Virus record (IMG/VR): IMGVR_UViG_3300047388_000185
Location: 128,738-192,737 of that record
Origin: a virus
Lineage: Duplodnaviria > Heunggongvirae > Uroviricota > Caudoviricetes
Reading direction: 5' to 3' (one strand)
DNA length: 64,000 nt
The notes beneath the pieces were generated by a model, which saw nothing but the letters and a program-made list of their open reading frames with translations, had not been told where the DNA came from and searched no databases. How positions within the stretch are numbered: the first letter of the stretch is position 1; every line of letters begins with the position of its first letter. Shown piece after piece: positions 5,863 through 61,382 of the stretch. Made by a program: the position numbers and the translations under genes.

Positions 5863-6360
5863 GAGTCCTGGATTGCGGCGCCGCTTGAGGTTGGCGCGTT
5901 CTAGGTTGGGAACCCCGGTGACAGACGGGTTCCTGCTTCTGTCTCCACGCGGGAGACGCCGGACAAGTAACCGGACGGCTAGACCTTTGTTCGTAACTGA
6001 CATTAATCGAGCCCTTCGTGAGGTGGGCACCCATGCAGTAGTTTGACCCCCAAAGCTGAACAGGCAAACTCTAATGCGCGAAATCCTGTAGCGATGCCGT
6101 AGTCGCAAGGTCGAGGTGCTCAATGCGAGACTCGTAACCCAACGGTAGTCCGTGCCAAAGCGAAAGCAGGCCGGGCCGCTCTGAAAAGAGTGTTATACAA
6201 GTGTGAAGATGTGAATTCTGACGCGCAATACTAGTCATACATTATGTTATGAGCTAGTTTGTGTTTCGCTGGATAAGTAACCAGCATTCCGGAGGCGGCC
6301 CACTCTGCCTTAAATGGCATCTTGTCGTCTCCGGTCTTAACCCCAAACAACGTTTTAGCG
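5863..6360. other. 500-bp GC-rich ORF-free region with multiple hairpins (candidate structured RNA or regulatory region)
   Basis: only short overlapping antisense ORFs in the track; stems such as GGAACCC/GGGTTCC and TCTCC/GGAGA. Confidence 0.3.
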
Positions 6361-6369
6361 AGGCACGAA

Positions 6370-6762
6370 ATGGCCAAGTACGAAAAGGGGCGACGTTGCC
6401 TCGTGTTGAATCACACCCACGACCGTTCGATCATCGGACATGAAGTGATCCTCGGGGACCGAGCACAGACTGGAAGGGTTTCAGACGGACGCGGCGGGTT
6501 CGAAGCCTCTGGTCTATTCTGGAGAACCGATCCTCCGATCTTCGTCCCCGGACACCCAAACTTTCAGCTGGTCTTTCGTGAGCCTTGGCTCTTCCCGATC
6601 GATGACGAGACGATCAATGAAGAACTTCGCAATGAAGTAGTTGACGATCCAGGGACGAAGAGGGTAGAATTAGATACTGCGTTCAAGAAATTGGATAAAG
6701 CGCTCAGTGATCTAGAAGAGCATTTGAAGAGAAGACTAGCAGAAAAGAAGCAAGCGATCTAA
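6370..6762 (+). CDS. hypothetical protein
   Basis: GAGG RBS before ATG 6370. Confidence 0.4.
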   Translation: MAKYEKGRRCLVLNHTHDRSIIGHEVILGDRAQTGRVSDGRGGFEASGLFWRTDPPIFVPGHPNFQLVFREPWLFPIDDETINEELRNEVVDDPGTKRVELDTAFKKLDKALSDLEEHLKRRLAEKKQAI

Positions 6763-6781
6763 GATCGTCAAGTAAAAGTAC

Positions 6782-6870
6782 GGAAATGTGGGCGAGAGGC
6801 TTATGCCAGCACCCTGCTAAGGTGCCGATCCCAGCAATGGGATCCGAAAGTTCGAATCTTTCCATTTCCG
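6782..6870 (+). tRNA. tRNA-Ser (anticodon GCT), class II with long variable arm
   Basis: perfect 7-bp acceptor GGAAATG/CATTTCC; anticodon stem GCACC/GGTGC with loop CTGCTAA; variable arm GATCCC-AGCAAT-GGGATC; T-arm GAAAG-TTCGAAT-CTTTC; CCA encoded. Confidence 0.7.
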
Positions 6871-6882
6871 CCAAGAATAAAT

Positions 6883-6967
6883 GGATGTGTACTCAAGTGG
6901 TTTACGAGAACGGTCTTGAAAACCGTCGGCTGGCAACGGTCCGTGAGTTCGAATCTCACCACATCCT
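6883..6967 (+). tRNA. tRNA-Ser (anticodon TGA), class II
   Basis: acceptor GGATGTG/CACATCC; anticodon stem ACGGT/ACCGT with loop CTTGAAA; T-arm GTGAG-TTCGAAT-CTCAC; CCA encoded. Confidence 0.7.
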
Positions 6968-6990
6968 CCAAACAACGCTCCAGAGGAGCC

Positions 6991-7350
6991 ATGCAAAAAT
7001 ACAATAAAACCCCGCTGATCGCAGGCATGCGCTGTTTGATTATCGCCTCGAAGACGAAGGCTCATCTTGGCCGAGAAGTTATCTTAGTTCGGACCTATGA
7101 ACTCAACGGGGGCAGAACGTACTGGGAAACTTCTCCGCAGCTAATTCGTATTGCCGAGGACGGGGAGAGGAAGGTCGTAGGCCTCACGTCAGGTTGCTTC
7201 CTGGCTCTAGACGAGCCCAAGATTCACGGTGAGTTGACCATCGAGCGCCGTGAAGACTGCAAGGCCGACCCTCGCATGGCCGGCTATATCCTCGGCAAGG
7301 AAGCTGCCTACAACTGGAAACAGAACAATCCCGGCGCTTCTGCCGGCTAA
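6991..7350 (+). CDS. hypothetical protein
   Basis: GGAG RBS before ATG 6991; the longer upstream ORF extension would overlap the tRNA. Confidence 0.4.
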   Translation: MQKYNKTPLIAGMRCLIIASKTKAHLGREVILVRTYELNGGRTYWETSPQLIRIAEDGERKVVGLTSGCFLALDEPKIHGELTIERREDCKADPRMAGYILGKEAAYNWKQNNPGASAG

Positions 7351-7497
7351 GTTATGCCCGGACTTCACCGAAACGCTTGCAACTAAGGTAAATTAAGCCC
7401 TGGAAATATTCAGGCCTAAAGCCAAGTCAAGCGCCACGTAAGTGAAGTTCGGGCACCACTCGCCCGTTTCTTTTTGTTCAACAATATCAGTCGATAC

Positions 7498-7506
7498 TGG
7501 TATAAG
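7498..7506 (+). promoter_or_regulatory. TGGTATAAG promoter-like motif, copy 3
   Basis: 12 nt upstream of the GTG 7519 start and overlapping its AAGGAG RBS. Confidence 0.45.
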
Positions 7507-7518
7507 AAGGAGTTAGTC

Positions 7519-7800
7519 GTGAGTGAAAATGTCTCGTATGTAGTTCTATTTACCATCTGCGTCCTCGCTTGGAACGTAAGCGACTGGATCGAAAAGTGGA
7601 AGGGACGCCCTGCTGAAGAAGACTGGGAACCCAGCGATGAAGAAATGTTTCAGCTCGGCTATCAAACCACTGCGGGACATCTCCTACAGGGTCATCCGAT
7701 CGATACTCTGAAGGAAGATCTGAGTCACGAATGGTCCACTGCTTTTGACAATGGAATTACCGTCGCAATCAATGCCTGGAAAGAGAAGGTGAAAGCATGA
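7519..7800 (+). CDS. small membrane protein
   Basis: GTG start with AAGGAG RBS at 7506-7511; hydrophobic N-terminus. Confidence 0.4.
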   Translation: MSENVSYVVLFTICVLAWNVSDWIEKWKGRPAEEDWEPSDEEMFQLGYQTTAGHLLQGHPIDTLKEDLSHEWSTAFDNGITVAINAWKEKVKA

Positions 7801-8093
7801 AGCTCGCAGTAATTTGGAGCCTCGGTATACTCACGGCTTTGGCGGGAGTGCTGGTTGGATGTAAGGCTGAAACGGAAGAACGCACTAGTCAATACGTCCT
7901 ACCTAATGGGCTACAGGATTGCAAGATCTATAAGATGGTCGGGGAAAACGGAGATTCGATGAAGGTGATGCGTTGCCCCAATAGCTCCACAACAACTACC
8001 TACGAAACGGGGGGTAAGTCCAAAACTACCCATACCGAAATCATCATCGACGGTGTAACGTATATTCCCTCGGATAAAGAGGTGAAACAATGA
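7797..8093 (+). CDS. lipoprotein (lipobox LVGC), paralog 1
   Basis: signal peptide plus LVG|C; C-terminus ...IIIDGVTYIP matches the next ORF. Confidence 0.55.
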   Translation: MKLAVIWSLGILTALAGVLVGCKAETEERTSQYVLPNGLQDCKIYKMVGENGDSMKVMRCPNSSTTTTYETGGKSKTTHTEIIIDGVTYIPSDKEVKQ

Positions 8094-8416
8094 AAACTCA
8101 AATCAATCGATGGATACTCGCTGCTCTTATGGCCATAGCAGGGCTGCTGGTCGGAGGATGTGTGCCCCCAACGTCAACGAATCCTGACAACACGGGTCAA
8201 TACGCAGTGCCTCAATCTCTGCCTGCCGGATACGAAGGTTGTACGGCAAATTTCATTCACGGCCCCGGTGCCCAGCAGTACCAAGGCTATGTCGTCCAAT
8301 GTAGCGGCAATCAGACGACAATCGAGACACATAAGACTGGGAAAACGAATGTAACAACTGTTACTATCAACGGTGTCACCTACGCCCCAGTCGCAGCCTC
8401 TGGAGCCGACCAGTGA
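8090..8416 (+). CDS. lipoprotein (lipobox LVGGC), paralog 2
   Basis: signal peptide plus lipobox; C-terminus ...VTINGVTYAP. Confidence 0.55.
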   Translation: MKTQINRWILAALMAIAGLLVGGCVPPTSTNPDNTGQYAVPQSLPAGYEGCTANFIHGPGAQQYQGYVVQCSGNQTTIETHKTGKTNVTTVTINGVTYAPVAASGADQ

Positions 8417-9225
8417 ACCGTCACGACTTCGAACTCCTCGGGGACAAGCACAAGCGCTATGAAGCCCGGGAAGACTCGACCATCATGCCAGGCATCCCCG
8501 TCCTGGTTCGTTTGGACGGCCGAGCCTTTCACACGTTCACGCGTGGGCTGGAGCGTCCGTTTGACAAGAACTTCACCGACTGCATGGTTGAAGCGACGAA
8601 GGCTCTCGTCAAAGAGATGCATGCAAATGTCGGCTACACGCAGTCAGACGAGATCACGCTTGGCTACCTGAACCCGGACCCAGCTGTCGAAATGATGTTC
8701 GCCGGCCGCGTTCAGAAGATTGTTTCGATCCACGCAGCCTATGCATCAGTGAGGTTCAACAAGCTCGTTGAAAAGCTTCTACCGGAAAAGGCAGCATTTC
8801 ACCCTATCTTCGATGCCCGAGTCTACGCCTATCCTAATTGGGACTTGGCTGCCGAGTCCTTCCTTTGGAGAGAAACCGATGCCACCAGAAATTCCCTGGC
8901 CATGGCCGCCCAAGCGCACTTCTCGCAGAAAGAGCTCGAAGGCAAAGGGCGATCCGCCATGCACGAAATGCTCTTCCAAAAAGGGATCAACTGGAACGAC
9001 TACCCGACGTTCTTCAAAAAAGGGACGTACGTAAGGCGTGGAGTTGAGGCAAGGCTTCTCACAGAAGAAGAACTTCTTCGAATTCCAGTAGATCGTCGGC
9101 CGACTGGACCTGTCACACGCGGCATCATGGTCACGACGGATATCCCTCCGGCTGAACGAATCCTCAACTTGGCGCCTGTGCTGTTTAATGGCGCCACTCC
9201 AATCACTGAACAACCCAAGGAATGA
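8413..9225 (+). CDS. Thg1-like protein (tRNA-His guanylyltransferase family, 3'-5' nucleotidyltransferase)
   Basis: N-terminus ...KRYEAREDSTIMPGIPVLVRLDGRAFHTFTRGLERPFDKNF matches the Thg1 catalytic-core signature (VVRIDGRxFHxF...KPFD). Confidence 0.65.
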   Translation: MNRHDFELLGDKHKRYEAREDSTIMPGIPVLVRLDGRAFHTFTRGLERPFDKNFTDCMVEATKALVKEMHANVGYTQSDEITLGYLNPDPAVEMMFAGRVQKIVSIHAAYASVRFNKLVEKLLPEKAAFHPIFDARVYAYPNWDLAAESFLWRETDATRNSLAMAAQAHFSQKELEGKGRSAMHEMLFQKGINWNDYPTFFKKGTYVRRGVEARLLTEEELLRIPVDRRPTGPVTRGIMVTTDIPPAERILNLAPVLFNGATPITEQPKE

Positions 9226-9938
9226 ATATGCAACACTTCGGACATGGCGAACGCGCCGGTTGGACCTTCACGTACACGGCTGGGCAACTGGCGTATGGCG
9301 CACAAAAGCAGAAGGACTACCGAGAAGACCGGTCTCGCCTCTGGTCCGCGACTCAGGAAAAGGTCATGGCTGAAATCCGAGCTTCTGGGATCGAAATCAC
9401 CCAGGATGTCATGACCCAGCTCCAGATTTCGGCAACGTACACCAAGTCTGGCGGAATGAATCGCGGTCCGACGGTGAGCATCAACCAGGACTTGGCTGAC
9501 AAGTTTGCCCAGTGCGTGGCCAAGGTCAAGGAGCACAAGGACCTGGCTGAGCAGTACGAGGGTTGGATCCAAACCTTGTCGGCCCAGTCGGAGAAGGAGC
9601 TGGAAGTCACGCAACAAGATTTCTTGTTCTTCTTCTTCAATGTCAAGGACATTCCCGGTGTTGTTTCGAAGACTGTCCTGACCCCGGCTGTGGCTACGCA
9701 AACCCTTGCATCTATGCCTCAAGTCCAGATCACCTCCACCAAGCCCGCAAAGGCTCAGTTGATTCCGCCGATCAACCCGTTGTCGCCAATGACCGCTCCG
9801 CCACTCAAACCCAAGGCTGGAGAAGTCCCGATGGCAACCGTTCCCTCTCTGGGTCCGGCCGCTGCGAACGTCTTCGTCCCGCCGGACTTCGACGATGACT
9901 TGGGTGGCAACCCGGGTAACGACTGGCCCCAGGATTGA
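9222..9938 (+). CDS. hypothetical protein with Pro-rich C-terminus
   Basis: 238-aa ORF coupled by ATGA overlap. Confidence 0.45.
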   Translation: MNMQHFGHGERAGWTFTYTAGQLAYGAQKQKDYREDRSRLWSATQEKVMAEIRASGIEITQDVMTQLQISATYTKSGGMNRGPTVSINQDLADKFAQCVAKVKEHKDLAEQYEGWIQTLSAQSEKELEVTQQDFLFFFFNVKDIPGVVSKTVLTPAVATQTLASMPQVQITSTKPAKAQLIPPINPLSPMTAPPLKPKAGEVPMATVPSLGPAAANVFVPPDFDDDLGGNPGNDWPQD

Positions 9939-9979
9939 TTTCGAAAACCAGCCCTACAGTTCAATAATACTGTAATTGT

Positions 9980-9988
9980 TGGTATAAG
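9980..9988 (+). promoter_or_regulatory. TGGTATAAG promoter-like motif, copy 4
   Basis: precedes the ORF-free tRNA-like region at 10000-10320; upstream palindrome TACAGT..ACTGTA. Confidence 0.45.
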
Positions 9989-10099
9989 GAATTGTAAGAC
10001 AGAATATGCCCTGAAAGCTCTGACGGTCCTGTGGCTCAAAGCAGGCGAACGTTGAATACCTCAGTGGATGTCCGGACTGAAGCTGAGGTATTTGACATC

Positions 10100-10159
10100 A
10101 TTCGAGAGCAGCGCAAAGATAAAGCGTATGCGGTGGTTCGAATCCACCTCGGGGCGCCA
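10100..10159 (+). ncRNA. tRNA-like 3' element: T-arm GGTGG-TTCGAAT-CCACC plus acceptor 3' strand plus CCA; no matching 5' half found
   Basis: canonical T-loop and ...TCGGGGCGCCA; no complementary 5' acceptor within 90 nt upstream. Confidence 0.3.
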
Positions 10160-10229
10160 TAAATCGCTAGGGACAAAACAACCTGACTGCCCGTGTCGAG
10201 TCGGGCCGATCCATTTTCTCCTTCTTTTT

Positions 10230-10309
10230 GGTTGTGTAAGCTCAGGGGCAGAGCTCGACAATGCCGGCTGTACAAAATCGGTGCGATGGTTCTAGTCCAT
10301 CCACATCCA
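10230..10309 (+). ncRNA. atypical tRNA-like element
   Basis: acceptor GGTTGTG/CACATCC with a 3:70 T.T mismatch; D-arm AGCT-CAGGGGCAG-AGCT; T-arm GATGG-TTCTAGT-CCATC; anticodon arm could not be folded canonically. Confidence 0.3.
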
Positions 10310-10599
10310 TCAGTTTCTTTTTGGTTTTCGACCTTACTGGAAAACCAGTTTTATACCAATCGATCATTCCTCTTTTCGAGGTTGTTCTTTTTCGTTGTTG
10401 TGACTTCAGTGTCGCGTATGCAACTCCCCTGTGCATTCATATAGCCAACGCTTTCAGCGTAACGCCACGGATGTGGTAGGCCTAATGAATAGGGTTTGAG
10501 ATCGGTTGGTTTTCCAGTGCGGTTTTCGCGCTACAGCAGTTCTGGTGAACTTAAGTAACTCCAGCTTGTTGTTAATGTTTCTTTAGCTAAAGGTATAAA

Positions 10600-11409
10600 A
10601 TGAGTCTGCAAAACAAGTTCATGAATCGCATGTTCCGTCGGATCTCGGGCGTGGTCATCGATGCTCTGTCGGGCAAGGTCGGCATCAAGACGGACGACGG
10701 CGTGTTCACCTGCGAACTCACCGGTTCGGGAGCCACGCTCTCGCACGAAATCTCGGTCAACATCCTCGACGGCCTGAGCTTCAACGTTCCGGGCTTCGCC
10801 AGCCAAGTCGAATTCGACAAGGTCAAGGCGGGTGACCTGGTCGTCAATGACAAGGGCATCGGCGGCTGGGTTGTGGGCAAGACGGCCAAGGCACTGAAGC
10901 TGGCCGACCACACCGGCTCGGTCAAGACTTATCAACCGCCGAAGGTCACCATCATGGGTGGCGCTGGTCCGAGCGGCGTGCTGGTCGTCCAGACCCTGTT
11001 CTCCCTGACGGGCTCGGCTGAAGGCGCTGCTGGCATCGGCCAAATGCTCCCGATGTTGATGCTTCTGGGTGACGGCAATGATTCGAAGCTGGATTCGATT
11101 CTGCCTCTGATCCTGATGCAAGGCGCAACCGGTGGCGCTGCCGCTGGTGGCCTGCAAAGCATCCTGCCTTTCCTTCTGATGAAGGACGGCGGTCTGGGTG
11201 GCGGCAACAGCAAGCTGGACAAGCTCCTGCCCCTGCTGGCCATGGGTGGCCTGGGCGGCGCTGGCGCGGCTGGCGGCGCGATGAATCCGATGCTGCTGAT
11301 GGCCCTGATGGGTGATGGCGACATCTTCGGTGGTTCGTCGGCTGCCAAGGTGGCTCCGGCCCTCCAACGCAACGGTGCTCCTCAGCTCCGGAACGTCGGC
11401 AGCTGGTAA
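10600..11409 (+). CDS. Gly/Leu-rich repeat protein
   Basis: repeats ILPLILMQG, ILPFLLMKDG, LLPLLAMGG, MLLMALMGDGD; high-GC segment. Confidence 0.5.
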   Translation: MSLQNKFMNRMFRRISGVVIDALSGKVGIKTDDGVFTCELTGSGATLSHEISVNILDGLSFNVPGFASQVEFDKVKAGDLVVNDKGIGGWVVGKTAKALKLADHTGSVKTYQPPKVTIMGGAGPSGVLVVQTLFSLTGSAEGAAGIGQMLPMLMLLGDGNDSKLDSILPLILMQGATGGAAAGGLQSILPFLLMKDGGLGGGNSKLDKLLPLLAMGGLGGAGAAGGAMNPMLLMALMGDGDIFGGSSAAKVAPALQRNGAPQLRNVGSW

Positions 11410-11510
11410 GTCAAATCCAGTCGGGAGACTGGTTGAGTGAGTGAAACTGGGACTGGCTTCGACTGGTCCCAGTTTTCCTTTTGCTTCTCTTTTTATATTT
11501 GGATAATACA

Positions 11511-12146
11511 ATGTCAATCTTTGACGCACTCTTCGGCCGGAAAACTCCCGAACTGAAAACGATCCCGCAATGGGAAGACACAGCTCCTCCGGTTCTAGAA
11601 ATTCATCCGGACGCGAATTTCGAGCCCGTCGCCCTAGCCGCAGCTTGGCCGTTCCCGAGCGCCGCATCTCATCCTGAGCCGATCGTTGAAACGGAAACCA
11701 AGCCCCTCGTCGTCAACACTGCCAAGCTGGCCCAGCACCATGCTGCCCTTGCAGAAGAACGCAAAGCCCTCAAGCAATACCTGAAGGAAATCGTTCAATC
11801 GGCTTCGGAGCACGGCATCGAGTTCGTCCATGTCGGAACGACGACCTTTGCCTGGCGCTATGCAACTTCGGCCGAAGAAGGCTACGTTCGCAACAAGCGC
11901 GTCATCCACATCTCGACGGCTGTCTGCAATCCCGCAGATCAGTTCGCCAAGTGGCACGGTAGTGCTATCGCTGCGGAGAACATGCTAGATGGCAAGTTCA
12001 TCACATTGCGGATCGATTCGGGGTATAAGAGCCCACGGGATGCGATCAATACGATGGGCTTGGTGACCTGGACGTCCGAGCAAATGCACGAGGCGTTGGA
12101 TCAAATTGCCGCGAAAAAGGCCGAACTTTCTAAAGGATGGAACTAA
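11511..12146 (+). CDS. hypothetical protein
   Basis: ATG 11511; upstream extension is less likely. Confidence 0.45.
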   Translation: MSIFDALFGRKTPELKTIPQWEDTAPPVLEIHPDANFEPVALAAAWPFPSAASHPEPIVETETKPLVVNTAKLAQHHAALAEERKALKQYLKEIVQSASEHGIEFVHVGTTTFAWRYATSAEEGYVRNKRVIHISTAVCNPADQFAKWHGSAIAAENMLDGKFITLRIDSGYKSPRDAINTMGLVTWTSEQMHEALDQIAAKKAELSKGWN

Positions 12147-12148
12147 TC

Positions 12149-12871
12149 ATGGCAAAACAGGCATCATGTCCCAAGCCAAGAGTCCCGACGCTCTACAAAG
12201 TCTTGTTCGACGGCAAGTCGTGCAACGGGGGGAGCTACGAGTGGGACACGTCAGGCGGAGTCAATCTGCTTCCAGCGAATCAGCGCCAGCTACCCCTGAA
12301 ACATTGCAGCGTCGGATTTCACCTGACCACGGACTGGAAGCGTTGGTATAAGTTCGGTCGGGACGTCTACCGAGCTACGGTTCCGGGCGACGAAATCTTG
12401 GTTAAACGAGATGGGAGCGTCCGCTGTGAGGACAAGGTCGTTGTCAGGTCCTGCCGACTATTCGACAAGAACGCCGATCCTCAAGTCCGCCTGTTGAATC
12501 AGTTCTACGACGACGCAATTCTGGTTCGTGACGGCTTCGAGGCAGCACGTCGTCGTCGGAAAGAGAAGACGGCTCCGAGGGGGACGGTGCTTCTGCCAGC
12601 CAATGGACATACCGGAGGTCTCTTCTCGCTGAAGGCATTTGGGTCCAGTTGGTATGTCCAGTCCCGGCTGCACGCCAGCGAGGAGCATTTCGGTGAGTAC
12701 TACTATCGATTCCGAGGCACCATCTATTTCATCTGCACCGCCCTAATTAAGTCCGAAGAAGGCACGATGACGGAAGCCGAGAAGAAGTCGGTCCACGACG
12801 TGTGGAACCTATGGAAGGCTGGTTGGATCGTGCACGGAACGAATAAAGCCGGGAAGTACGTCGTTTCTTGA
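12149..12871 (+). CDS. hypothetical protein
   Basis: AAGGA RBS before ATG 12149. Confidence 0.45.
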   Translation: MAKQASCPKPRVPTLYKVLFDGKSCNGGSYEWDTSGGVNLLPANQRQLPLKHCSVGFHLTTDWKRWYKFGRDVYRATVPGDEILVKRDGSVRCEDKVVVRSCRLFDKNADPQVRLLNQFYDDAILVRDGFEAARRRRKEKTAPRGTVLLPANGHTGGLFSLKAFGSSWYVQSRLHASEEHFGEYYYRFRGTIYFICTALIKSEEGTMTEAEKKSVHDVWNLWKAGWIVHGTNKAGKYVVS

Positions 12872-12890
12872 CGTGACCGGGGAAACCCGG

Positions 12891-12897
12891 TTATAAT
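12891..12897 (+). promoter_or_regulatory. TTATAAT -10-like element (variant of the TGGTATAAG motif) upstream of tRNA-Thr
   Basis: GGTTATAAT sits 28 nt before the tRNA 5' end and is preceded by the hairpin CCGGGGAAACCCGG. Confidence 0.35.
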
Positions 12898-12925
12898 CAA
12901 TCTTTTCGGGGCGAAAGCTTCGTAT

Positions 12926-12996
12926 GCCCTCTTAGTTCAGTGACAGAACAATTGCCTTGTAAGCAAAAAACGGGAGTTTGATTCTCTCAGGGGGCA
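12926..12996 (+). tRNA. tRNA-Thr (anticodon TGT)
   Basis: acceptor GCCCTCT/AGGGGGC; D-arm GTTC-AGTGACA-GAAC; anticodon loop CTTGTAA; T-arm GGGAG-TTTGATT-CTCTC; CCA encoded. Confidence 0.7.
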
Positions 12997-13013
12997 CCAT
13001 TTAAAGGACTTTC

Positions 13014-13466
13014 ATGACGAAAGTTGAAGAGAAGAAGGAAGAGTTCAAGCCAATTCCCAACGGCGCAATCTACGTCTTCGGATCCAACGAAAGTGGCATT
13101 CATGGGTCGGGAACGGCCCGTACTGCCAGGGAAGACTACGGTGCCATCATGGGCAACGGCTGGGGACTTCAGGGCAAGAGCTTTGCCATCCCCACGAAGG
13201 ACTGGGATATCAACACGCTAACCTACGGCGCTGTTGAATTCTACGTAGAACGTTTTATTGCCTTTGCACTTTCTAGGCCAAAAATGACGTTCTACGTCAC
13301 GAAGATTGGGTGCGGGCTTGCTGGATTAAATGAAGAAATAATCAAGCGGATGTTCATAGGTGCTCCTGAGAATTGCATTCTCCCGTACGGTTGGGAGCCC
13401 CCGGAATCGAAAGGTTACACTCATGGTCCAGCCCGCCCTCCTGCTGGACGGGCAATGACGAAATGA
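13014..13466 (+). CDS. conserved Gly-rich protein (motif FGSNESGIHGSGTA...GNGWGLQGKSFAIPTK), function unknown
   Basis: distinctive Gly-rich motif; Rossmann-like fold suspected but family not named. Confidence 0.45.
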   Translation: MTKVEEKKEEFKPIPNGAIYVFGSNESGIHGSGTARTAREDYGAIMGNGWGLQGKSFAIPTKDWDINTLTYGAVEFYVERFIAFALSRPKMTFYVTKIGCGLAGLNEEIIKRMFIGAPENCILPYGWEPPESKGYTHGPARPPAGRAMTK

Positions 13467-13568
13467 CAATTGAAACCCACACCATCAAGTCCTGGACCAT
13501 GTTCTTCGGAGATATGCAGTGCTAAGCATCCGACTAATTCCCGAGCACGAACAGTCTGGGTTTTGATT

Positions 13569-13590
13569 AGAGGCTTTGGCCTCTTTTTTA
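13569..13590 (+). terminator. rho-independent terminator
   Basis: hairpin AGAGGC-TTTG-GCCTCT followed by TTTTTT. Confidence 0.6.
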
Positions 13591-13612
13591 GATTACAAGA
13601 AATGAGAATACA

Positions 13613-14053
13613 ATGCATAAAATTGCAATTATAAAGATAACTGAAACGAACCGATACGATACGGAGGGTGTAAATAGAGACTCCAAAATCATCGAGAGCA
13701 TTACGGAATGGACCGAAGTTTCTAACGAAGAAATGGCCGCGCTTCGTCACTTTGAATCCCTGCGACGCTATACAAATGATAAGTTCATCCTACTTGAACA
13801 ACCAACTAACGTTAAAGAATTTGTCGCCAATACGGTATCAAGTTATGTAAAGGCCGCCCAAGAAGCCAAAAAGAAGGCTGATATCGTTGCAGCCAAAGCC
13901 AAGAAGGAAGCGGCTGATAGAGCTGTAAAAGCTAAGGAAAAGGCGGAGGCCAAGGAACGAGATCAACTCAAGAAGCTACTGGTTAAGCATGGATCAAGTA
14001 TTGGACTAACAGCGCCTATGGTCGAAGCCTCCGATAAGTCAACAAAAGCTTGA
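13613..14053 (+). CDS. Lys/Ala-rich coiled-coil protein
   Basis: AT-rich ORF with the AKKKADIVAAKAKKEAADRAVKAKEKAEAKERD segment. Confidence 0.45.
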   Translation: MHKIAIIKITETNRYDTEGVNRDSKIIESITEWTEVSNEEMAALRHFESLRRYTNDKFILLEQPTNVKEFVANTVSSYVKAAQEAKKKADIVAAKAKKEAADRAVKAKEKAEAKERDQLKKLLVKHGSSIGLTAPMVEASDKSTKA

Positions 14054-15977: not shown

Positions 15978-16427
15978 GTGTTTATCAAGATTAAGAAGCT
16001 GCACAAAGACGCAGTGATTCCCGCGTACAAGACAGATGGGGCAGGAGCCTTTGACATCCATTCCTTGGGAGAAGGGGTCCTGCACCCCGGAGATACCTAT
16101 ACATTCTGTACAGGATTGGCTTTCGAAATTCCGCCCGGATTTGCGCTCATGATTTATTCCCGCAGCGGGCATGGCTTTGGACCTGAGGTCAAACTGGTCA
16201 ACGGAACGGGAATAATCGATTCGGACTACCGAGGTGAAGTTATGATCAAGTTGGAGAGATTCCGAAATAGGATCTCAACTTCGGATGACGCCCCATTCAA
16301 AGTCAGTGTCGGAGATCGCATTGCTCAGGGAATCATCCTCCCCGTCCCCCGTGTTTCGTTCATCGAAACCGAAGAGCTCTCTGAGACTGTCCGTGGTACT
16401 GGCGGCTTCGGATCCACTGGAGCATAA
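15978..16427 (+). CDS. dut: dUTP diphosphatase (dUTPase)
   Basis: motifs AGAFDIHS, RSG, GIIDSDYRGEVMIKL, C-terminal RGTGGFGSTG. Confidence 0.85.
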   Translation: MFIKIKKLHKDAVIPAYKTDGAGAFDIHSLGEGVLHPGDTYTFCTGLAFEIPPGFALMIYSRSGHGFGPEVKLVNGTGIIDSDYRGEVMIKLERFRNRISTSDDAPFKVSVGDRIAQGIILPVPRVSFIETEELSETVRGTGGFGSTGA

Positions 16428-21836: not shown

Positions 21837-22673
21837 TTAGTCAAACGGGTTAACTCCACCCAAAGCTGATTTAAGTGACTCTAGCGCCTCTTTACGCAGG
21901 GTCTTGACCTTCTCCTTGCTGAGCTTCAATTCAGCAGCTACTTGTGCAACGTTCCGGTCTTCTCCATCGAAGATACCGAAGGACAGTTCGATGACCTCCC
22001 GTTGGTCATCCGGTAGTGCAGCGATTCGCTGGTGAAGACGGTCTCGGTCAAGTCTGGTGTTAACTTCATCCTCGATAGGATTGATCTCAAAGGCTGGATC
22101 TTCATCCATGTCTGAGATGTAGAACGTAAGAAAACGAGTTCCCCACAATTCTCGGAGATCTTTCTCCTGGATATCTGGAAACTCGTTTTTTAGCCCTTCA
22201 AATGTAATATCAGGCCGCTTTTCCAAGATCTTTTGAATACGAGCTGAAAGCTGTTGACGCCAAATCGGGAGAGAAACTATTCTTTGCATCGCCATGCTAT
22301 AGAGCATTCTTTGACGGGTCCAGAATCCTGCATAAGTTAAGTATCTATATCCGCTTTCCGGTTTGAACTTCTCGAATGCAACTAGTAGACCATCGTTACC
22401 AGCAGCGATTAGTTCTTCGAATACATCGGGATCATTCTTGGAATACTTCTTAGCTTCTTTGAAGACAAATCTGAGATTAGATTCTATGATCCGGGATCGG
22501 ATTTGGAGCTTTCTCTTCTCTGACGTGGTCTCGTCTTGGTATTCTAAGAAGAGATCTAACTCTTCTTCCCGAGTGAGCATCGGGGTCTTGCTGATTTTCT
22601 CGTAATAAATGGAAAGGGACATTTGACGCATTATAGTAGAAAGTGTATGACCGTGCAACTTAATAATAATCAA
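21837..22673 (-). CDS. RNA polymerase sigma factor (sigma-70 family)
   Basis: region 2 ELIAAGNDGLLVAFEKFKPESGYRYLTYAGFWTRQRM; region 4 HTH AELKLSKEKVKTLRKEAL; the only convincing minus-strand gene. Confidence 0.8.
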   Translation of the reverse strand: MIIIKLHGHTLSTIMRQMSLSIYYEKISKTPMLTREEELDLFLEYQDETTSEKRKLQIRSRIIESNLRFVFKEAKKYSKNDPDVFEELIAAGNDGLLVAFEKFKPESGYRYLTYAGFWTRQRMLYSMAMQRIVSLPIWRQQLSARIQKILEKRPDITFEGLKNEFPDIQEKDLRELWGTRFLTFYISDMDEDPAFEINPIEDEVNTRLDRDRLHQRIAALPDDQREVIELSFGIFDGEDRNVAQVAAELKLSKEKVKTLRKEALESLKSALGGVNPFD

Positions 22674-31374: not shown

Positions 31375-31569
31375 ATGACTGGATCAGAAATCAAGCCTGG
31401 TAATGTCGTTCGTCTGAAAAGCGGTGGCCACAAAATGACGGTGGAATACGTCGATGGAGATGGTAAGATCAATGTCTGTTGGAATCCAGTTGACTGGGAG
31501 GGCAAGCCCTTTTCAGGAGCGATGCTGCGAGAAAAGGTTTGGCCGGCATGCTTGAAGGTGGTTGAATGA
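31375..31569 (+). CDS. DUF2158/YodC-like small protein, paralog 2
   Basis: GNVVRLKSGGHKMTVEYVDG motif; ATG 31375 directly after the previous stop. Confidence 0.45.
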   Translation: MTGSEIKPGNVVRLKSGGHKMTVEYVDGDGKINVCWNPVDWEGKPFSGAMLREKVWPACLKVVE

Positions 31570-32330
31570 GTGTGAAAATTGAAGATAGCACAGTCGAACT
31601 GATCGATTCTATGGGCTCGGACTTGAGCGTGTGTAATGCGGCGAGAGTCTCGTTTCATAAAAAGTCTGAATGGGAAGAGGAGGGTCCTTGGATCAAGAAA
31701 ACAAATGAGGATGGAACTCACGAGTTCTCTACGCCTCGATTGGCTGAGCCTGACCAAAAACTTATTCGCTATCTGGCCAAACATGGGCACTGGTCGCCGT
31801 TTGCACATGCCTTCCTGAGTTTTCGTGTCAAAGCTGATTTTGCGACAGTAGCTCAATTGTTTAAACACCAAGTTGGGTTAGCAGCAAATTCAGTATCTCG
31901 CCGATACGTTTCTGATCTTCCGGGCGTGTTCTTACCGGAAACCTGGCGTAGTCGTCCGGAAAACGTCAAACAAGGATCAAGCGAAACTGACATTGTTACG
32001 GTTACGTTGGAGCAGTATGCCAATGCCGGCGGCCTACCCTTTCAAGAACCAACTCTAAACAATTTGGTTACGCAACACTATGGGCGATGTTTAGCTCTCT
32101 ACGAGAACATGCTGGCTATGGGCGTGGCGCCAGAACAAGCCCGTTGGGTTCTCCCGATCGGAGCTATGACAGAATTCATCTGGTCAGGGTCGCTGATGGC
32201 CTTTGCCCGCGTCTACAAACAGCGTTCAGATCTTCACGCTCAAAAAGAGATCAGAGATGTGGCTCATAAAATCTCGAGTCTCATCCCACACAACATGCAG
32301 CACTCATGGGCTGCGCTAACAGAGAACTAA
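31566..32330 (+). CDS. thyX: flavin-dependent thymidylate synthase ThyX-like
   Basis: N-terminus VELIDSMGSDLSVCNAARVSF plus SRRYVS; the RHR motif looks partly degenerate. Confidence 0.65.
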   Translation: MSVKIEDSTVELIDSMGSDLSVCNAARVSFHKKSEWEEEGPWIKKTNEDGTHEFSTPRLAEPDQKLIRYLAKHGHWSPFAHAFLSFRVKADFATVAQLFKHQVGLAANSVSRRYVSDLPGVFLPETWRSRPENVKQGSSETDIVTVTLEQYANAGGLPFQEPTLNNLVTQHYGRCLALYENMLAMGVAPEQARWVLPIGAMTEFIWSGSLMAFARVYKQRSDLHAQKEIRDVAHKISSLIPHNMQHSWAALTEN

Positions 32331-34190: not shown

Positions 34191-35531
34191 ATGGCAGGGC
34201 TTAAAGACCTCAGCTTGGATGAGCTATACGCGAAGGAAAAGAAGAGCAAGGCGGTCGAGATTCAGATCATGGCGAAGTCGGACTTCGACAAAATCAATCT
34301 TCGGTGGTGCGACAACATCTGCAAGCTGAAGTGCAAGAACCCAGAAGGGGTCAAGCTGATTCGGCAAGAGGTTGATATCCTCATTATCCAGGATCATATG
34401 GCTCCGCCGGGGAAGTATGACAAGTGGGAAGGTCAGCAAGAGGGGATCCAAAGCGGCGTCATCAACTTCCTGGCTAAGGAAGCGGGCTTTCACGGGTTGA
34501 AGTACCAAGTCACTAGTCTGTTGAAGTGTTCGGCTACTCATGACGACTTTCCCAACGGGAAGCCGCCGACTCAAACGACGATGCAGAAGTGCAGCCCCTA
34601 TTTGCAGGCTGAGATTGACCGAGTTAAGCCGAAGGTGATTATCTCATTGGCTACGGCTGTGACGAAGACGCTGGGGTTGAGCAAGGCTTCTAACACAGGA
34701 GATCGGGGGACGATCCAATTTACGGAGGATGGGATTCCGGTTGTGATTTCATTGCATCCTAGAATCTTAACGTTCATTCGGCAAAACGCCCGTGGCTCTG
34801 CTGGTATGTGGGGCCCGGACTACTTGAAGGTCATTCAACGTGACTTCGAGAAGGCTAAAGACCTGGCAACAGGTAAGCTGAAATACACAAAGAACACGCT
34901 GGTCGAAGCGATCGAACTGATTAAGGCTAAGTACCTTCGCGTGGCTAAAAGTATCGACGATGTCAAAGCGTTCATGGCTGAGATTTGGGCACTGCCTGAG
35001 ACGCAGATTGTGTCTTGGGATACTGAGACGACCAGCCTGGATCCGCTTGACCCGTACTTGAAATTGCTCACAACTCAGTACGGCTGGAGAAACGCGGTCG
35101 GGGATCTTCAAACGGTTGTCATTCCTCTCTGGCACCGAGACAACAATGCCTACGACCCGGCTGAAGCCTGGGAGATTGTCAAGCCCTACATGTTAAGTGA
35201 GCGACCAAAAGTTGGCCATAACATTAAGTACGATGTGTTGGCGACATACTGGTCCACTGGTATTCGAGTCAAGGGTATACAGTTTGACACGCTGCTCTTG
35301 ATCCATTCGATCTACAGCGGCCAGCAGGGCTGCTACGGCTTGAAGGTAGCGACTTGGGACTACTTGACAGAAATGGGTATTGGCGGATATGAAGACATGC
35401 TCGGAAAGCTGTCGGACTTGGCCAAGAAGATGAACAAGGAACGAGCCCAGATTCAGCTCGAACAAGCAGCAATGGAAGCTGCCCTTGAAGGAGTCGAAGA
35501 AGAACAAGGAGATGAAAATGAGTTTCGGTGA
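34191..35531 (+). CDS. DNA polymerase 3'-5' exonuclease subunit with N-terminal UDG-like domain
   Basis: Exo I VSWDTETTSLD; Exo II VGHNIKYDVLA; Exo III Y..KVATWDYL; N-terminal uracil-DNA-glycosylase-like fold region; ends 14 nt inside the polymerase ORF, in another frame. Confidence 0.65.
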   Translation: MAGLKDLSLDELYAKEKKSKAVEIQIMAKSDFDKINLRWCDNICKLKCKNPEGVKLIRQEVDILIIQDHMAPPGKYDKWEGQQEGIQSGVINFLAKEAGFHGLKYQVTSLLKCSATHDDFPNGKPPTQTTMQKCSPYLQAEIDRVKPKVIISLATAVTKTLGLSKASNTGDRGTIQFTEDGIPVVISLHPRILTFIRQNARGSAGMWGPDYLKVIQRDFEKAKDLATGKLKYTKNTLVEAIELIKAKYLRVAKSIDDVKAFMAEIWALPETQIVSWDTETTSLDPLDPYLKLLTTQYGWRNAVGDLQTVVIPLWHRDNNAYDPAEAWEIVKPYMLSERPKVGHNIKYDVLATYWSTGIRVKGIQFDTLLLIHSIYSGQQGCYGLKVATWDYLTEMGIGGYEDMLGKLSDLAKKMNKERAQIQLEQAAMEAALEGVEEEQGDENEFR

Positions 35532-36634
35532 TTTGTTCGAAGAGGGGCCAATTGCTCCGGTCAAGCCCCGGGGTATTGCTTCTTTAGAAAAAGCAAGAGT
35601 CAAGGAGGCAGAGTGGTTGTCGGAGAAACTGAAGTATGCTCCTACCATTGAGTTTATGCACGAGCTACCTGATGCACCTGATCGCATTACGTACGAGGAT
35701 TTTCCGTTCAACGATCTGAACATCTACGCTGGAGTTGACTGCATTGCAACCAGTGGCATCTTGGGAAAACTTTGGGGAGACCTGACGAAGACCGAGATGA
35801 TGAAGGTGCCGGACGCCAAGGGTAAGCCTCAGATAGTAGAAGCCCCTGCTGTTATCGACAGCGTGGTGGACGTAGAGATGCCGGCTCACGAGTTCATCTT
35901 GGACTTGGAAATCAACGGCATCGGGTACTCCGTGGCTCGTAACGAGTTCATCACGAAGAAGATGACGGCTGAGATCGAGGAGCTTGATGCTCGGATCTGT
36001 GAGTCCGTTGGCCGTCAATTGGACATGAACTCGGGCGCAGCATTGGCCAAGTACTTGTACGAGGAGCGTGGCTTTGACGTTCCGTTCAAGACGAAGAAGG
36101 GTGAGCCGGCGGTTGACGGGAATGCGTTCTTGACGATCGCGGGATTGGATCCGATGGGGAAGAGTCGGACTGCGAAGGATCCGACTTTGCAGTTCTTGGT
36201 GGATATGGCAAAGCGTCGGGATTTGAGTTCAGTTCGAGGGACGTTCTTGTCAAACTACGTCAAGGACTTCGTCAAGAGAGATGGGCGCGTTCACAGCTCG
36301 TATAACGCTTTTGGCACAAGTGGGTTTCGTATCAGTGGGGATACTCCAAATTTAACCCAACTACCTAGGTCTAAACACGGGTATAATATTCGGACATGTT
36401 ACACTACTCGTCCAGGATACGTGTTCATCAGTTTTGATTTCAGCAGTGCCGAAGTTAAAATTTTGAGTGCCGTTTCGAAAGAGCCTACGATGTTAAGGGC
36501 CATTCAAGACGGTCTGGATTTTCATACCTTCAGTGCGAGTTCCATGAGGGGAATTCCTTATGATGAAATGATGGGCGTGCTTTCGGACGAAAAGCATGAA
36601 AAATATAGAGAATACAAAGAGCTCCGTCAACTCT
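35518..36634 (+). CDS. family-A DNA polymerase, exon 1 (palm motif A, up to motif B)
   Basis: AAGGAG RBS before ATG 35518; motif A ISFDFSSAEVKILSAVS; the ORF ends ...ELRQLSK, aligning to PolA ...EQRRSAK. Confidence 0.6.
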
Positions 36635-37919
36635 CCAAAGTGTTAGAATAAGTTAGCACCTTTAGCGGGCGACCGCTATAGCAAATCCTGTTAATTGAAA
36701 ATAGATAATTGTGAGAAAAATACCCAAAGAGGATATCATAGAGAAGGCTACGAATCTTCTAAAACAAGAAGGTCGTTATCTAACTCAACGTGAAATTTCT
36801 AAAGGTATTGAAATATACGAAGGCGTGTTTCGAAAAAACGACATTGACACTGAAAAATTAGCCAATGAACTTGGATTTTTCAAGTCGGATTTATTCTACG
36901 CAGAATCTGCCAAATATCTGGATTTGTATAAAAAGTACACAATCGAGAAGGCCAGTGTAGTTTCTATTCCTGAATTTTCCGATTACATTGGTATTCCTGC
37001 CTGGAAGATTTATAAGTTTCAATGGGATTTAGAAGCCGTTTACGAAGAATGTACGAGCACTTGGATTAGTGAAGAACAAGCTTTGATTCTTTATAAAAAC
37101 ATGATTAAAGAAGCGAAATCAAGTACGCCTTTAATTAAGTTTAGTCAAGAAACCGGCATGAGTTTTCATCGTCTTTATCATTTTGGCTGGGATATCAAAT
37201 CTATCCATGAGGAGTGTGGGGTCACAGGTCGAATGTTTGATCGGATGACCTCCTTACCTCAAGCAAATCAAATTCTGAAAAGTTTGATAGAAAAGAAAAA
37301 TCGATACGTTACCAGAAAAGAACTCGCTTCTTATCTAGGTGTCTCATCGAGTTTACTATCAGTCTATAAACTTCCTTTAGAAAATATTAATGCTGAGTAC
37401 AGATTTTATCCCCGAGCCAAAGGCTACGAAATGTTTGTAGGCGAGGTTTTCTCAGAGATGTTCCCTATGTATTCGTTAGTAAAACAGAAGACATATTCGG
37501 ATTGTCGGGCAAGTGAATCAAAACGTAGTGTTTTAAAGTTTGATTATTACTGTCCGGAATTAAATCTTCTATTGGAAGTTGACGGTCCAGGTCATTTCAA
37601 CCCTGCGTGTAAATATTATGCGCCAGAGGTTGTGATCCGGGATCAAATCAAAAATGAATATTGTCAACAAAACGGGATTCCTTTAATCCGAATCCCCTAC
37701 GAACCAAAGTACTTTAAATCTCACGTTCAAAGTTATCTATCGGGAATCTCCTCGCCTGAAAAGGACGGACAACCCGCAGCCAAGCCTGATGAAAATCAGG
37801 AAGGTTCAACGACTAGTCGAAAGACGTAGGGCTCAAGAGAGCTCGAAACGCAGGGGCACTCTAGTAGTGCGTGATATAGTCTGAACTCATGGGAAACCAT
37901 GAGAGGTTTTGGGGAATCG
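36635..37919 (+). mobile_element. intron-like insertion (group I intron suspected) splitting DNA polymerase motif B; carries a homing-endonuclease ORF
   Basis: AT-rich 1.3-kb insert; 5' exon can end in T (CTCT|), insert ends in G (..GGAATCG|), and joining the ORFs restores in-frame RQLSK-TATNIVTFSILYG. Confidence 0.5.
36711..37829 (+). CDS. intron-encoded PD-(D/E)xK (DUF559/Vsr-like) homing endonuclease
   Basis: C-terminal core KFDYYCPELNLLLEVDGPGHF (E-VDG-x-H signature); GTG start; AT-rich. Confidence 0.5.
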   Translation: MRKIPKEDIIEKATNLLKQEGRYLTQREISKGIEIYEGVFRKNDIDTEKLANELGFFKSDLFYAESAKYLDLYKKYTIEKASVVSIPEFSDYIGIPAWKIYKFQWDLEAVYEECTSTWISEEQALILYKNMIKEAKSSTPLIKFSQETGMSFHRLYHFGWDIKSIHEECGVTGRMFDRMTSLPQANQILKSLIEKKNRYVTRKELASYLGVSSSLLSVYKLPLENINAEYRFYPRAKGYEMFVGEVFSEMFPMYSLVKQKTYSDCRASESKRSVLKFDYYCPELNLLLEVDGPGHFNPACKYYAPEVVIRDQIKNEYCQQNGIPLIRIPYEPKYFKSHVQSYLSGISSPEKDGQPAAKPDENQEGSTTSRKT

Positions 37920-38557
37920 CCAAAACCGCAACAAACATTGTGACATTCTCGATTTTATATGGCTCGTCTGAGGGGGGGATTGCTTTGCAATTAGGCATCT
38001 CCAAAGAAGAAGCCATTCGCCTTATGACCCTTTATTTTGATACCTTTCCGAAGGTTAAGGATTACATTGAAAAATCTCATCTAACGGCCAAGTGGAACCA
38101 GTTCGTTATCACGCCACTTGGTCAACGCAAACGGGAGTTTGGTACATTCGAGTGTTTCCGTCGCACAGCTGCTTACAATGCCGCTCTCCGCAATGCTCAG
38201 AATGTGATCATTCAATCGACGACTTCATCGGTCGGTTTGATGACCTTCACGGAGCTGAATCGACGGATTAAACCGTTTGGCGCAGTTAGTACTTGCTCCG
38301 TGTACGACTCTTTGGAAATCGAATGTCCATTGGAGAAAGCAGCCGAAGTCATTGCCGTCTGCTATGACACTTTGGATAACTGGCCTGTCGAAAACTTCGA
38401 TTGGTTGGAGCTACCAATCGGCTGCGAAGGAGACGTCGGAGTCAGTTGGGGAGAAACCAAGATCGTCCACCCCGGAGTCACGCAAGCTGAGGTCGAAGCT
38501 CTGGTTCAAAAGACCCGAGAAGAGTCCATCAAGACGTTTGGTGAATGGCTTCAATAA
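37920..38557 (+). CDS. family-A DNA polymerase, exon 2 (motifs B and C)
   Basis: motif B (K)TATNIVTFSILYGSSEGGIALQLGIS; motif C VYDSLEIECP; no RBS ahead of the in-frame ATG, consistent with splicing. Confidence 0.6.
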
Positions 38558-60921: not shown

Positions 60922-61040
60922 GACCCCTTAGCTCAGTGGGAGAGCGGCCCGGTGCCCCGGGTGAATCCAAACTTGTTCATTGAACCTTAGCGGGTTCTAC
61001 ATGCCGGTTAGCGTCGTTGGTTCGAATCCAACAGAGGTCA
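60922..61040 (+). ncRNA. atypical tRNA-like element (119 nt: canonical 5' half and T-arm/acceptor 3' separated by an extra ~50 nt)
   Basis: GACCCCT-TA-GCTC-AGTGGGA-GAGC then a GCCCG stem with a 6-nt loop containing TGCC (a GCC/Gly anticodon if canonical); 50 nt later GTTGG-TTCGAAT-CCAAC-AGAGGTC-A. Confidence 0.3.
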
Positions 61041-61298: not shown

Positions 61299-61373
61299 TG
61301 GGGAATCGTCAAGCGGCTTAAGACACTACACTTTGACTGTAGCATTTCGTAGGTTCGAATCCTACTTCCCCTG
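61299..61373 (+). tRNA. tRNA-Gln (anticodon TTG) with a T1.T72 mismatch
   Basis: acceptor TGGGGAA/TTCCCCT; anticodon stem CTACA/TGTAG with loop CTTTGAC; T-arm GTAGG-TTCGAAT-CCTAC; CCA encoded. Confidence 0.55.
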
Positions 61374-61382
61374 CCAAGATTT

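Follow-up and report, generated by a model that had tools for sequence, protein, structure and literature searches.

Template-dependent addition of nucleotides in the 3'-5' direction and a preference for truncated tRNAs are known for the Thg1-like proteins (TLPs) BtTLP of Bacillus thuringiensis and MaTLP. BtTLP prefers 5'-truncated tRNAs 5- to 160-fold over full-length ones and is not confined to tRNA-His (PMC3061083). In phages, a Thg1 gene was recognised in 2010 in phage 201phi2-1 and proposed to serve RNA repair against host defences (PMC2904730). A jumbo-phage survey of 2021 counts Thg1 among the phage RNA-repair enzymes (PMC7824862), and the genome papers of Bc431v3 and XacN1 note a TLP gene beside tRNA sets (PMC3601020, PMC5852040). 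A 2019 review of the TLP field makes no mention of phages. The gene is found in hundreds of large phages, often in tRNA arrays. The present analysis deals with one such gene, located in a stretch of 64,000 nucleotides (nt) that corresponds to positions 128,738 to 192,737 of the IMG/VR virus record IMGVR_UViG_3300047388_000185 (Caudoviricetes) and is called the window hereafter. The gene is predicted to encode an intact bacterial-type TLP. With a probability of roughly 55%, this protein would act during infection as a general repair and quality-control enzyme for the 5' ends of host and phage tRNAs.

The gene was defined as follows.

8413..9225, + strand: TLP open reading frame (ORF), 270 amino acids, templated 3'-5' RNA polymerase family

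The ORF starts with GTG, which overlaps the stop codon of the preceding ORF (8090..8416). An earlier sequence-only reading of the window had recognised the Thg1/TLP catalytic-core signature in this ORF and pointed to the hidden Markov model of the Thg1 family as a check. Both the signature and the family assignment were confirmed. The motif IPVLVRLDGRAFHTFTRGLERPFDKNF is present in the translation, and Pfam PF04446 (Thg1) matched with E=3e-30 and 105.2 bits, far above its cut-off of 29.2, over practically the whole profile (positions 3-130 of 130). The Thg1C match reached 22 bits and stayed under its cut-off of 26.3. PHROG 4717, named 'tRNA-His guanylyltransferase', matched with E=5e-74. The top solved structure found by sequence was the B. 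thuringiensis TLP (4kgk, E=3e-39, residues 8-207) with 138 bits, while eukaryotic Thg1 of yeast, Candida and human gave only 43-60 bits.

An AlphaFold (AF2) model was built from 27 homologues and obtained a predicted local distance difference test score (pLDDT) of 92.9 and a predicted template modelling score (pTM) of 0.88. The model displays a polymerase-like palm fold, and the best 32 Foldseek matches in the PDB were all Thg1/TLP chains, the first one being BtTLP again (4kgm/4kgk; 4kgm E=3e-19). Using the residue numbering of PMC3701042, the metal-binding carboxylates D35, D79 and E80 align with D30, D75 and E76 of BtTLP (D29, D76 and E77 of hTHG1), and R33, E17 and H40 correspond to R28, E12 and H35 of BtTLP, which contact the nucleoside triphosphate (NTP). 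All six residues are invariant across the alignment of 27 homologues. M164 aligns with M158 of BtTLP and is nearly invariant among the homologues; eukaryotic Thg1 has the asparagine of the activation step at this position (N158 of hTHG1). About 60 additional C-terminal residues (210-270) are kept in phage and myxobacterial relatives, were confidently modelled and give the weak Thg1C match. Because family, fold and all active-site residues are present, the ORF is assigned to an intact bacterial-type TLP and predicted to encode a 3'-5' polymerase which is probably active.

The TLP gene lies among tRNA and tRNA-like genes, all of them on the same strand. Those of the window are the following.

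6782-6873, + strand: tRNA-Ser(GCT), perfect acceptor stem, encoded CCA, syntenic in the sister phages L002 and L091
6883-6970, + strand: tRNA-Ser(TGA), perfect acceptor stem, encoded CCA, syntenic in L002 and L091
10008..10159, + strand: E1, a tRNA-Ile(GAU)-like RNA of 152 nt, found by relaxed ARAGORN
10230..10309, + strand: E2, a tRNA-like RNA, Rfam tRNA 31.0 bits
12926-12999, + strand: tRNA-Thr(TGT), encoded CCA, putative sigma-70-like promoter at 12868-12897
60922..61040, + strand: E3, a tRNA-like element of 119 nt, Rfam tRNA 39.8 bits, ARAGORN -i
61299-61376, + strand: tRNA-Gln(TTG), U1.U72 mismatch, G73, encoded CCA
61383-61458, + strand: tRNA-Asn(GTT), directly after tRNA-Gln, encoded CCA

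ARAGORN and Rfam returned exactly five canonical tRNAs, the same five that the sequence-only reading had named. The three atypical elements that it had listed were also recovered, E2 and E3 by Rfam and E1 by relaxed ARAGORN. Just upstream of the window, tRNA-Gly, tRNA-Cys and tRNA-Leu follow with clean pairing and encoded CCA. The order around the TLP gene is therefore Gly, Cys, Leu, Ser, Ser, TLP, E1, E2, Thr. tRNAs upstream of the window and within it flank the TLP gene, which places it in a same-strand tRNA region dispersed over about 16 kb. Among five closely spaced ORFs (7474-9938, + strand) it is number four, and this block is flanked by tRNA and tRNA-like genes which are on the same strand and have separate putative promoters.

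The distribution of the gene was investigated in phage and metagenomic collections. Of 8000 scored candidates, 7815 were homologues with E<1e-10. In GenBank, the gene occurs in 156 phage records, most of which are from jumbo phages infecting Bacillus, Caulobacter, Mycobacterium, Burkholderia and others, and an alignment-based scan of IMG/VR gave at least 586 contigs. No close relatives were returned from IMG/VR by a search with exact peptide words, and no near-identical DNA was found among GenBank phages. The identical protein is encoded by two contigs, one from Logan (52.6 kb) and one from JGI (192.7 kb). The nearest relatives are on metagenomic contigs and show 64-79% identity, and cellular homologues are closest in Myxococcota and Planctomycetota.

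Four metagenomic sister phages with 64-79% TLP identity (L002, L089, L090 and L091) retain the same-strand order of TLP and tRNA genes, including the Ser-Ser tRNA pair upstream of the TLP gene and tRNAs downstream. In more distant viral loci, a tRNA was detected within 10 kb of the TLP gene in 25 out of 80, giving 183 tRNAs in total, and within 5 kb in 20 of the 77 loci with a mappable TLP ORF. Every one of the 153 tRNAs (out of 183) assigned to a mapped TLP locus is on the strand of the TLP gene. tRNAs are denser close to the gene, at about 0.16-0.22 per kb within 3 kb, than at 7-9 kb, where the density is 0.02-0.10 per kb. The association of TLP genes with tRNA arrays is thus real; it is far from universal, since most viral TLP loci have no nearby tRNA. 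Some tRNAs of these loci are unusual in themselves. Anticodon loops of 8 or 6 nt, given four- or two-base anticodons by ARAGORN, were observed at L042 2664-2740, L050 16118-16192, L020 8514-8585 and L066 16853-16926, and tRNAs with the amber-reading CUA anticodon occur in L014 and L032.

Neighbouring genes were compared by clustering 2292 ORFs from 84 TLP loci. Common neighbours include RNA ligases of PF09511 (6 loci) and PF09414 (5 loci) as well as an Acb1-type 2H phosphoesterase and cREC, each in 5 loci, which lends the surroundings of phage TLPs no more than a weak flavour of RNA repair.

If the enzyme is involved in general tRNA 5'-end repair, it would activate the 5' phosphate of an RNA that lacks one or a few nucleotides in the 5' strand of its acceptor stem. 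The enzyme would then supply these nucleotides in the 3'-5' direction with the intact 3' strand as template, and the refilled tRNA could again be aminoacylated. This mechanism is proposed on account of the biochemistry of the B. thuringiensis and archaeal TLPs. The protein would belong to an optional translation-maintenance toolkit of large phages, together with tRNA genes, RNA ligases and CCA-adding enzymes. The general premise of the sequence-only reading, that Thg1-like proteins repair tRNA 5' ends, is documented biochemistry of the family (PMC3061083). Its suggestion that tRNAs damaged by host defences are the substrate is reasonable and has already been published (PMC2904730, PMC7824862), but no known defence nuclease has been reported to produce the 5'-truncated kind of substrate favoured by TLPs.

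Several observations weigh against general 5'-end repair. The known defences that target tRNAs cleave them in the anticodon arm or loop, in the D or T loop, or on the 3' acceptor strand (PMC12916289, PMC13462974, bioRxiv 10.64898/2026.07.10.737580), and 5'-end trimming is not reported among those described. The repair substrate is hypothetical for that reason. In the searchable literature, annotations and two comparative-genomics proposals were found, but no experiment on a phage TLP. At the genomic level, tRNAs are absent within 10 kb in 55 of the 80 viral TLP loci, and within 20 kb of the TLP gene in BcepSauron. Clustering of the neighbours did not reveal any conserved partner gene, the commonest neighbour being dCMP deaminase in 10 of the 84 loci. 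Finally, the ORFs that share the block with the TLP gene in the window have no recognisable RNA function (two are lipoprotein-like, the others have no family match).

The database name 'tRNA-His guanylyltransferase' implies a different role, in which the TLP would add G-1 opposite C73 for the maturation or maintenance of phage or host tRNA-His whenever the extra 5' G is missing after RNase P processing or damage. BtTLP can indeed place G-1 opposite C73, and its complementation of yeast thg1 is weak, but the same work reports that the enzyme kinetically favours truncated tRNAs of any identity (PMC3061083). Four Gemmata-type bacterial loci have a tRNA-His gene on the TLP strand, 75-500 nt downstream of the TLP gene, and T occupies position -1 in one phage tRNA-His near a TLP gene (that of L059, with which L060 is identical). 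In the phage analysed here, however, no tRNA-His gene was found in the 64-kb window or in the approximately 7.3 kb read upstream of it, and tRNA-His accounts for only 5 of the 183 TLP-adjacent phage tRNAs. Moreover, G-1 and C73 are encoded in three of the four distinct TLP-near phage genes and in all four Gemmata genes, so that no addition of G-1 is needed there. The bacterial loci in question (L115, L126, L144 and L151, from Gemmata and other Planctomycetota) have tRNA-His(GUG) with genomic G-1 and C73 downstream of the TLP gene. This gene pair suggests a tRNA-His-related role of TLP in that clade, which is not transferable to the phage. A function in tRNA-His maturation is considered unlikely here.

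Two of the atypical RNAs lie close to the TLP gene and were analysed as possible substrates. E1 folds as a cloverleaf with a 7-base-pair (bp) acceptor stem, G73, CCA, a standard T arm and an anticodon-arm loop AAGAUAA (GAU; A33), and its D stem GCUCU/AGAGC encloses an insertion of about 75 nt after the GG of the D-loop. The orthologue in the sister phage L089 (1997-2146) is 83% identical. Six pairs are kept by two-sided changes between the two RNAs, and these compensated pairs fall in the acceptor, D and T stems and in the inserted hairpins. A shorter relative with one inserted hairpin (an insertion of about 22 nt) is present in L069 (9852-9954), 47 nt upstream of the TLP gene of an unrelated phage whose TLP is 41% identical. 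Its alignment with E1 scores 83, whereas shuffles reach 41 +/- 6 and ordinary tRNAs 41-50. Position 33 is A instead of U in two of the three E1-type copies, which argues against ordinary decoding. All three copies are located at most 1 kb from a phage TLP gene.

E2 has normal acceptor, D and T arms with T3.T70, A73 and no CCA (TCA comes next); its anticodon region is non-canonical, with a shifted 5-bp arm and a 10-nt loop. Its orthologue in L002 (11862-11944) differs by four pairs changed on both sides, contains U3-A70 and has CCA. In the acceptor stem, G-C is replaced by U-A at 6:67 and U.G by G-C at 2:71, and a palindrome covaries (GCCGGC in the window, TCCGGA in L002). E1 and E2 are situated 0.8-1.0 kb downstream of the TLP gene, behind their own conserved promoter-like site. 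E3 has normal acceptor, D and T arms, a C5.A68 mismatch and no CCA, and about 62 nt replace the anticodon and variable arms. Its fold is as stable as that of shuffled sequences (z=-0.5), and no orthologue was found.

Searches for a wider family were negative. Covariance models of E1 and E2 run over 1.7 Mb of fetched loci retrieved only the known orthologues and ordinary tRNAs. An exact-pattern scan for the E2 core gave no match in IMG/VR and JGI metagenomes, collections which do not contain the source contig, and the hairpin pattern of the L069-type E1 matched only its own contig. Rfam scans of the window at gathering threshold and of positions 6000-14000 at E<=1 gave only tRNAs and one sub-threshold family of plastid untranslated regions, so no ribozyme, intron or YrlA family accounts for the insertions; a YrlA match came up only in L091, with 24 bits and at the level of chance. 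The idea that E2 mimics tRNA-Ser(TGA), with which it has the 3' acceptor strand CACATCC in common, was rejected as the corresponding pair in L002 differs.

Two further non-coding stretches were noticed. In L091, the position of E1 and E2 is occupied by about 330 nt (10332-10665) closed by a perfect 13-bp stem, GCTTAGTCGAGGC / GCCTCGACTAAGC, and rich in repeated CCGAAT and CCGAGT motifs; Rfam gave no significant match for this stretch, its matches in the locus being tRNA genes at other places and hits at the level of chance. Between tRNA-Cys and tRNA-Leu upstream of the window (L100 4190-4671, about -3120 to -2640 in window numbering), a non-coding gap of 480 nt contains GGGGATG...CATCCCC, another degenerate tRNA-like sequence, whose T loop AGAATCC is odd.

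The natural substrates of the TLP could be E1, E2, their relatives or other non-tRNA RNAs, the 5' ends of which it would complete or cap, with canonical tRNAs not being its main substrate. Some TLPs, DdiTLP4 among them, act on non-tRNA RNAs. In favour of such a role, E1 and E2 combine proximity to the TLP gene with a conserved promoter-like site of their own and with compensatory changes, and E1 relatives lie beside the TLP gene in three phages, including the one with 41% TLP identity. TLPs are also described as broadly distributed and of unknown function (PMC5041481). Nevertheless, the 5' ends of E1 and of the L002 copy of E2 are perfectly paired and need no addition, and most phage TLP loci lack such an element. 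With only three E1-type and two E2-type copies, the association with the TLP gene is no more than suggestive, and this use of the enzyme appears quite improbable. E1 and E2 might also be decoys or specialised adaptors with 5' ends built or repaired by the TLP.

The sequence-only reading had noticed mismatches in three acceptor stems, and all are present as it described them: U1.U72 in tRNA-Gln, T3.T70 in E2 and C5.A68 in E3. The U1.U72 mismatch of tRNA-Gln is real. Seven IMG/VR loci have the same T arm and 3' acceptor strand as this tRNA-Gln. Position 1:72 is U1-A72 in four of them and A1-U72 in two (L094 and L099), which makes the U1.U72 of the window a hybrid of the two states. Rewriting of U1 would give A1-U72, the natural state in the phage tRNA-Gln genes of L094 and L099, and DdiTLP3 carries out such rewriting of mismatched 5' nucleotides in Dictyostelium mitochondria (PMC6471195). 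That the phage uses its TLP on its own unusual RNAs, whether for rewriting U1 to A1 in tRNA-Gln or for servicing E1 and E2, seems very doubtful. If the rewriting were true, it would be the first case of tRNA 5' editing outside eukaryotic organelles. E. coli glutaminyl-tRNA synthetase (GlnRS) unpairs U1-A72. A U.U at 1:72 should therefore be tolerated, and the mismatch in tRNA-Gln should need no correction.

Mitochondrial 5' editing acts at acceptor positions 1-3, and its defining feature is that many tRNA genes encode mismatches there. In the phage, acceptor stems are fully paired in seven of the eight canonical tRNAs (the five of the window and Gly, Cys and Leu upstream), so that a mismatch at positions 1-3 occurs in one of eight canonical tRNAs and in one of the three atypical elements, E3 having its mismatch at position 5. 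Neither of these mismatches is conserved across relatives. The T3.T70 of E2 is a single-lineage change, the L002 orthologue being paired as U3-A70, and position 1:72 is paired in the related tRNA-Gln genes. Of the 13 canonical tRNAs of the sister phages, only a tRNA-Met(CAT) in L002 has a 5' mismatch, U1.U72, and a mismatch at 1:72 is the usual mark of initiator tRNAs.

Among the 183 tRNAs within 10 kb of a TLP gene, from 25 viral loci, 160 have no acceptor mismatch at all. Eight are mismatched at position 1, of which seven are tRNA-Met(CAT), and about five others have a mismatch at positions 1-3, some of them being doubtful predictions. In a control set of 52 tRNAs from phage loci not chosen for TLP, four mismatches were found, none at positions 1-3. 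The mismatch rates of the two sets are similar, with no apparent difference and with samples too small to show one, and the number of mismatches in the window is not unusual for phage tRNAs. Taken together, the sequence comparisons indicate that the mismatches in the tRNA genes of this phage are most likely incidental and not programmed editing sites. The claim that the phage pairs its TLP with mismatched tRNA genes in order to edit them found no support, as seven of eight tRNAs are clean, the mismatches are not conserved and positions 1-3 are not enriched. Programmed editing, in which the TLP would rewrite removed 5' nucleotides (U1 of tRNA-Gln, T3 of E2) from the 3' strand as happens in mitochondria of Amoebozoa, is thus highly improbable, and no candidate nuclease for trimming the 5' end was identified.

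The remaining features concern the surroundings of the TLP gene. The window covers the part of a large phage genome that serves replication and nucleotide metabolism, and nearly all genes are on the + strand. Helicase and primase genes are present, along with a family A DNA polymerase gene that an HNH ORF splits and genes for ribonucleotide reductase, Thy1, dUTPase, dCMP deaminase, a MazZ-like diphosphohydrolase and a NADAR protein. The elements of the five-ORF block and other relevant features are listed below.

7450-7466: terminator-like hairpin ahead of the five-ORF block
7477..7506, + strand: putative promoter TTCAAC-N-TGGTATAAG before the block, one instance of a recurrent motif
7474-7800, 7797-8093 and 8090-8416, + strand: small ORFs upstream of the TLP gene, with overlapping stop and start codons
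9222..9938, + strand: ORF of 238 amino acids overlapping the TLP stop codon, with a syntenic ORF in L002, L089 and L091
9960..9988, + strand: putative promoter TTCAAT-N17-TGGTATAAG, 20 nt upstream of E1, motif at the same place in L002, L089 and L091
About 1121, 2623, 7477, 9960, 14059, 15219, 21442, 33762, 38550, 42265, 48013, 52496 and 59989 (starts), + strand: copies of the promoter-like motif
40094-40600: NADAR-domain protein
L100 6576-6944: cREC 'cyclic-phosphate processing receiver' gene, about 0.4-0.7 kb before the window start and about 9 kb upstream of the TLP gene

The motif TTCAA(T/C)-N17-TGGTATAAG is present in at least 13 copies on the + strand of the window, where it heads many gene blocks. 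It also precedes tRNA-Gly upstream of the window, and its position is kept in the sister phages. It probably represents the main promoter class of the phage. The ORFs 7797-8093 and 8090-8416 are paralogous and lipoprotein-like, with a cysteine after a hydrophobic stretch (DUF4884 / PHROG 902). Such a pair directly upstream is odd company for a tRNA enzyme, and no connection of the small ORFs in 7474-8416 to tRNA function was found. The ORF 9222..9938 gave no family match. The survey of 2021 ties NADAR and cREC to NAD/ADP-ribose and RNA-end processing (PMC7824862). Neither a polynucleotide kinase (PNK) nor an RNA ligase was found within the 64-kb window.

Outside the block, the family A polymerase appears in pieces: an exonuclease/uracil-DNA glycosylase-like part (34191-35531), a polymerase part (35485-36651) and the polymerase C-terminal part (37889-38557). 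A 372-amino-acid HNH homing-endonuclease-like ORF (36711-37829) lies between polymerase pieces, suggesting that the gene is split or interrupted by an intron. The N-terminal domain of a MazZ-like dATP/dGTP diphosphohydrolase occurs alongside dCMP deaminase, Thy1 and dUTPase (57529-58194, 59531-60016, 31566-32330 and 15978-16427), and this set of nucleotide-pool genes could point to a modified DNA base. A sigma-70 family gene with regions 2 and 4 (21837-22673) is the sole clear gene of the window on the - strand. A database look-up of ORF 51051-51974 returned no record. About 280 nt of non-coding sequence (10321-10600) upstream of ORF 10600-11409 are 78-81% identical in L002, L089 and L091, with near-identical runs longer than those of the flanking genes. 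It could act as a leader or regulatory region, or be an RNA.

Phage TLP systems would offer a practical route to the natural substrate of these enzymes, and could reveal whether some host defence trims the 5' ends of tRNAs. The route is not tied to the window, since cultured phages such as BcepSauron, CcrColossus and Bc431v3 carry the TLP gene. Specific to the window are the tRNA-like RNAs with compensatory changes that adjoin it.

Compared with known systems, the protein is closest to BtTLP (PDB 4KGK/4KGM), its best match in sequence and structure, and to other bacterial TLPs such as those of Myxococcus and Sorangium. It shares with BtTLP the catalytic carboxylates and the Arg, Glu and His that contact the NTP, as well as the TLP-type Met instead of the eukaryotic Asn. 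It differs from BtTLP in being encoded by a phage within a tRNA region and in its approximately 60 extra C-terminal residues, and its activity is predicted only. The genes of PHROG 4717 in phages of Burkholderia (BcepSauron, BcepSaruman), Caulobacter (CcrColossus), Bacillus (Bc431v3) and Xanthomonas (XacN1) belong to the same family, with 37-52% identity. These phages are likewise large and tRNA-rich, and their TLP has already been discussed as a tRNA-modifying or RNA-repair enzyme (PMC3601020, PMC5852040, PMC2904730, PMC7824862). In contrast to them, the phage of the window has no close DNA relative among sequenced phages, and its TLP gene is flanked by atypical tRNA-like RNAs. Since the gene and the repair idea were published in 2010 and 2021, this TLP is not new as a class and is a divergent addition to an already known and already interpreted one.

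DdiTLP3, the mitochondrial editing enzyme of Dictyostelium, belongs to the same superfamily and performs the same templated 3'-5' refilling of the acceptor stem, but serves many tRNA genes mismatched at positions 1-3, whereas one of eight canonical tRNAs is mismatched here, in a pattern not conserved in relatives. The concept of a phage enzyme restoring damaged tRNAs is the same as for Pnk and Rnl1 of phage T4 against PrrC. The chemistry of T4 is the ligation of breaks in the anticodon loop, while that of TLP is 5' refilling. T4 also provides the nearest precedent for E1 and E2, namely RNAC and RNAD, stable small RNAs of unknown role which are encoded in its tRNA cluster (PMC3014915).

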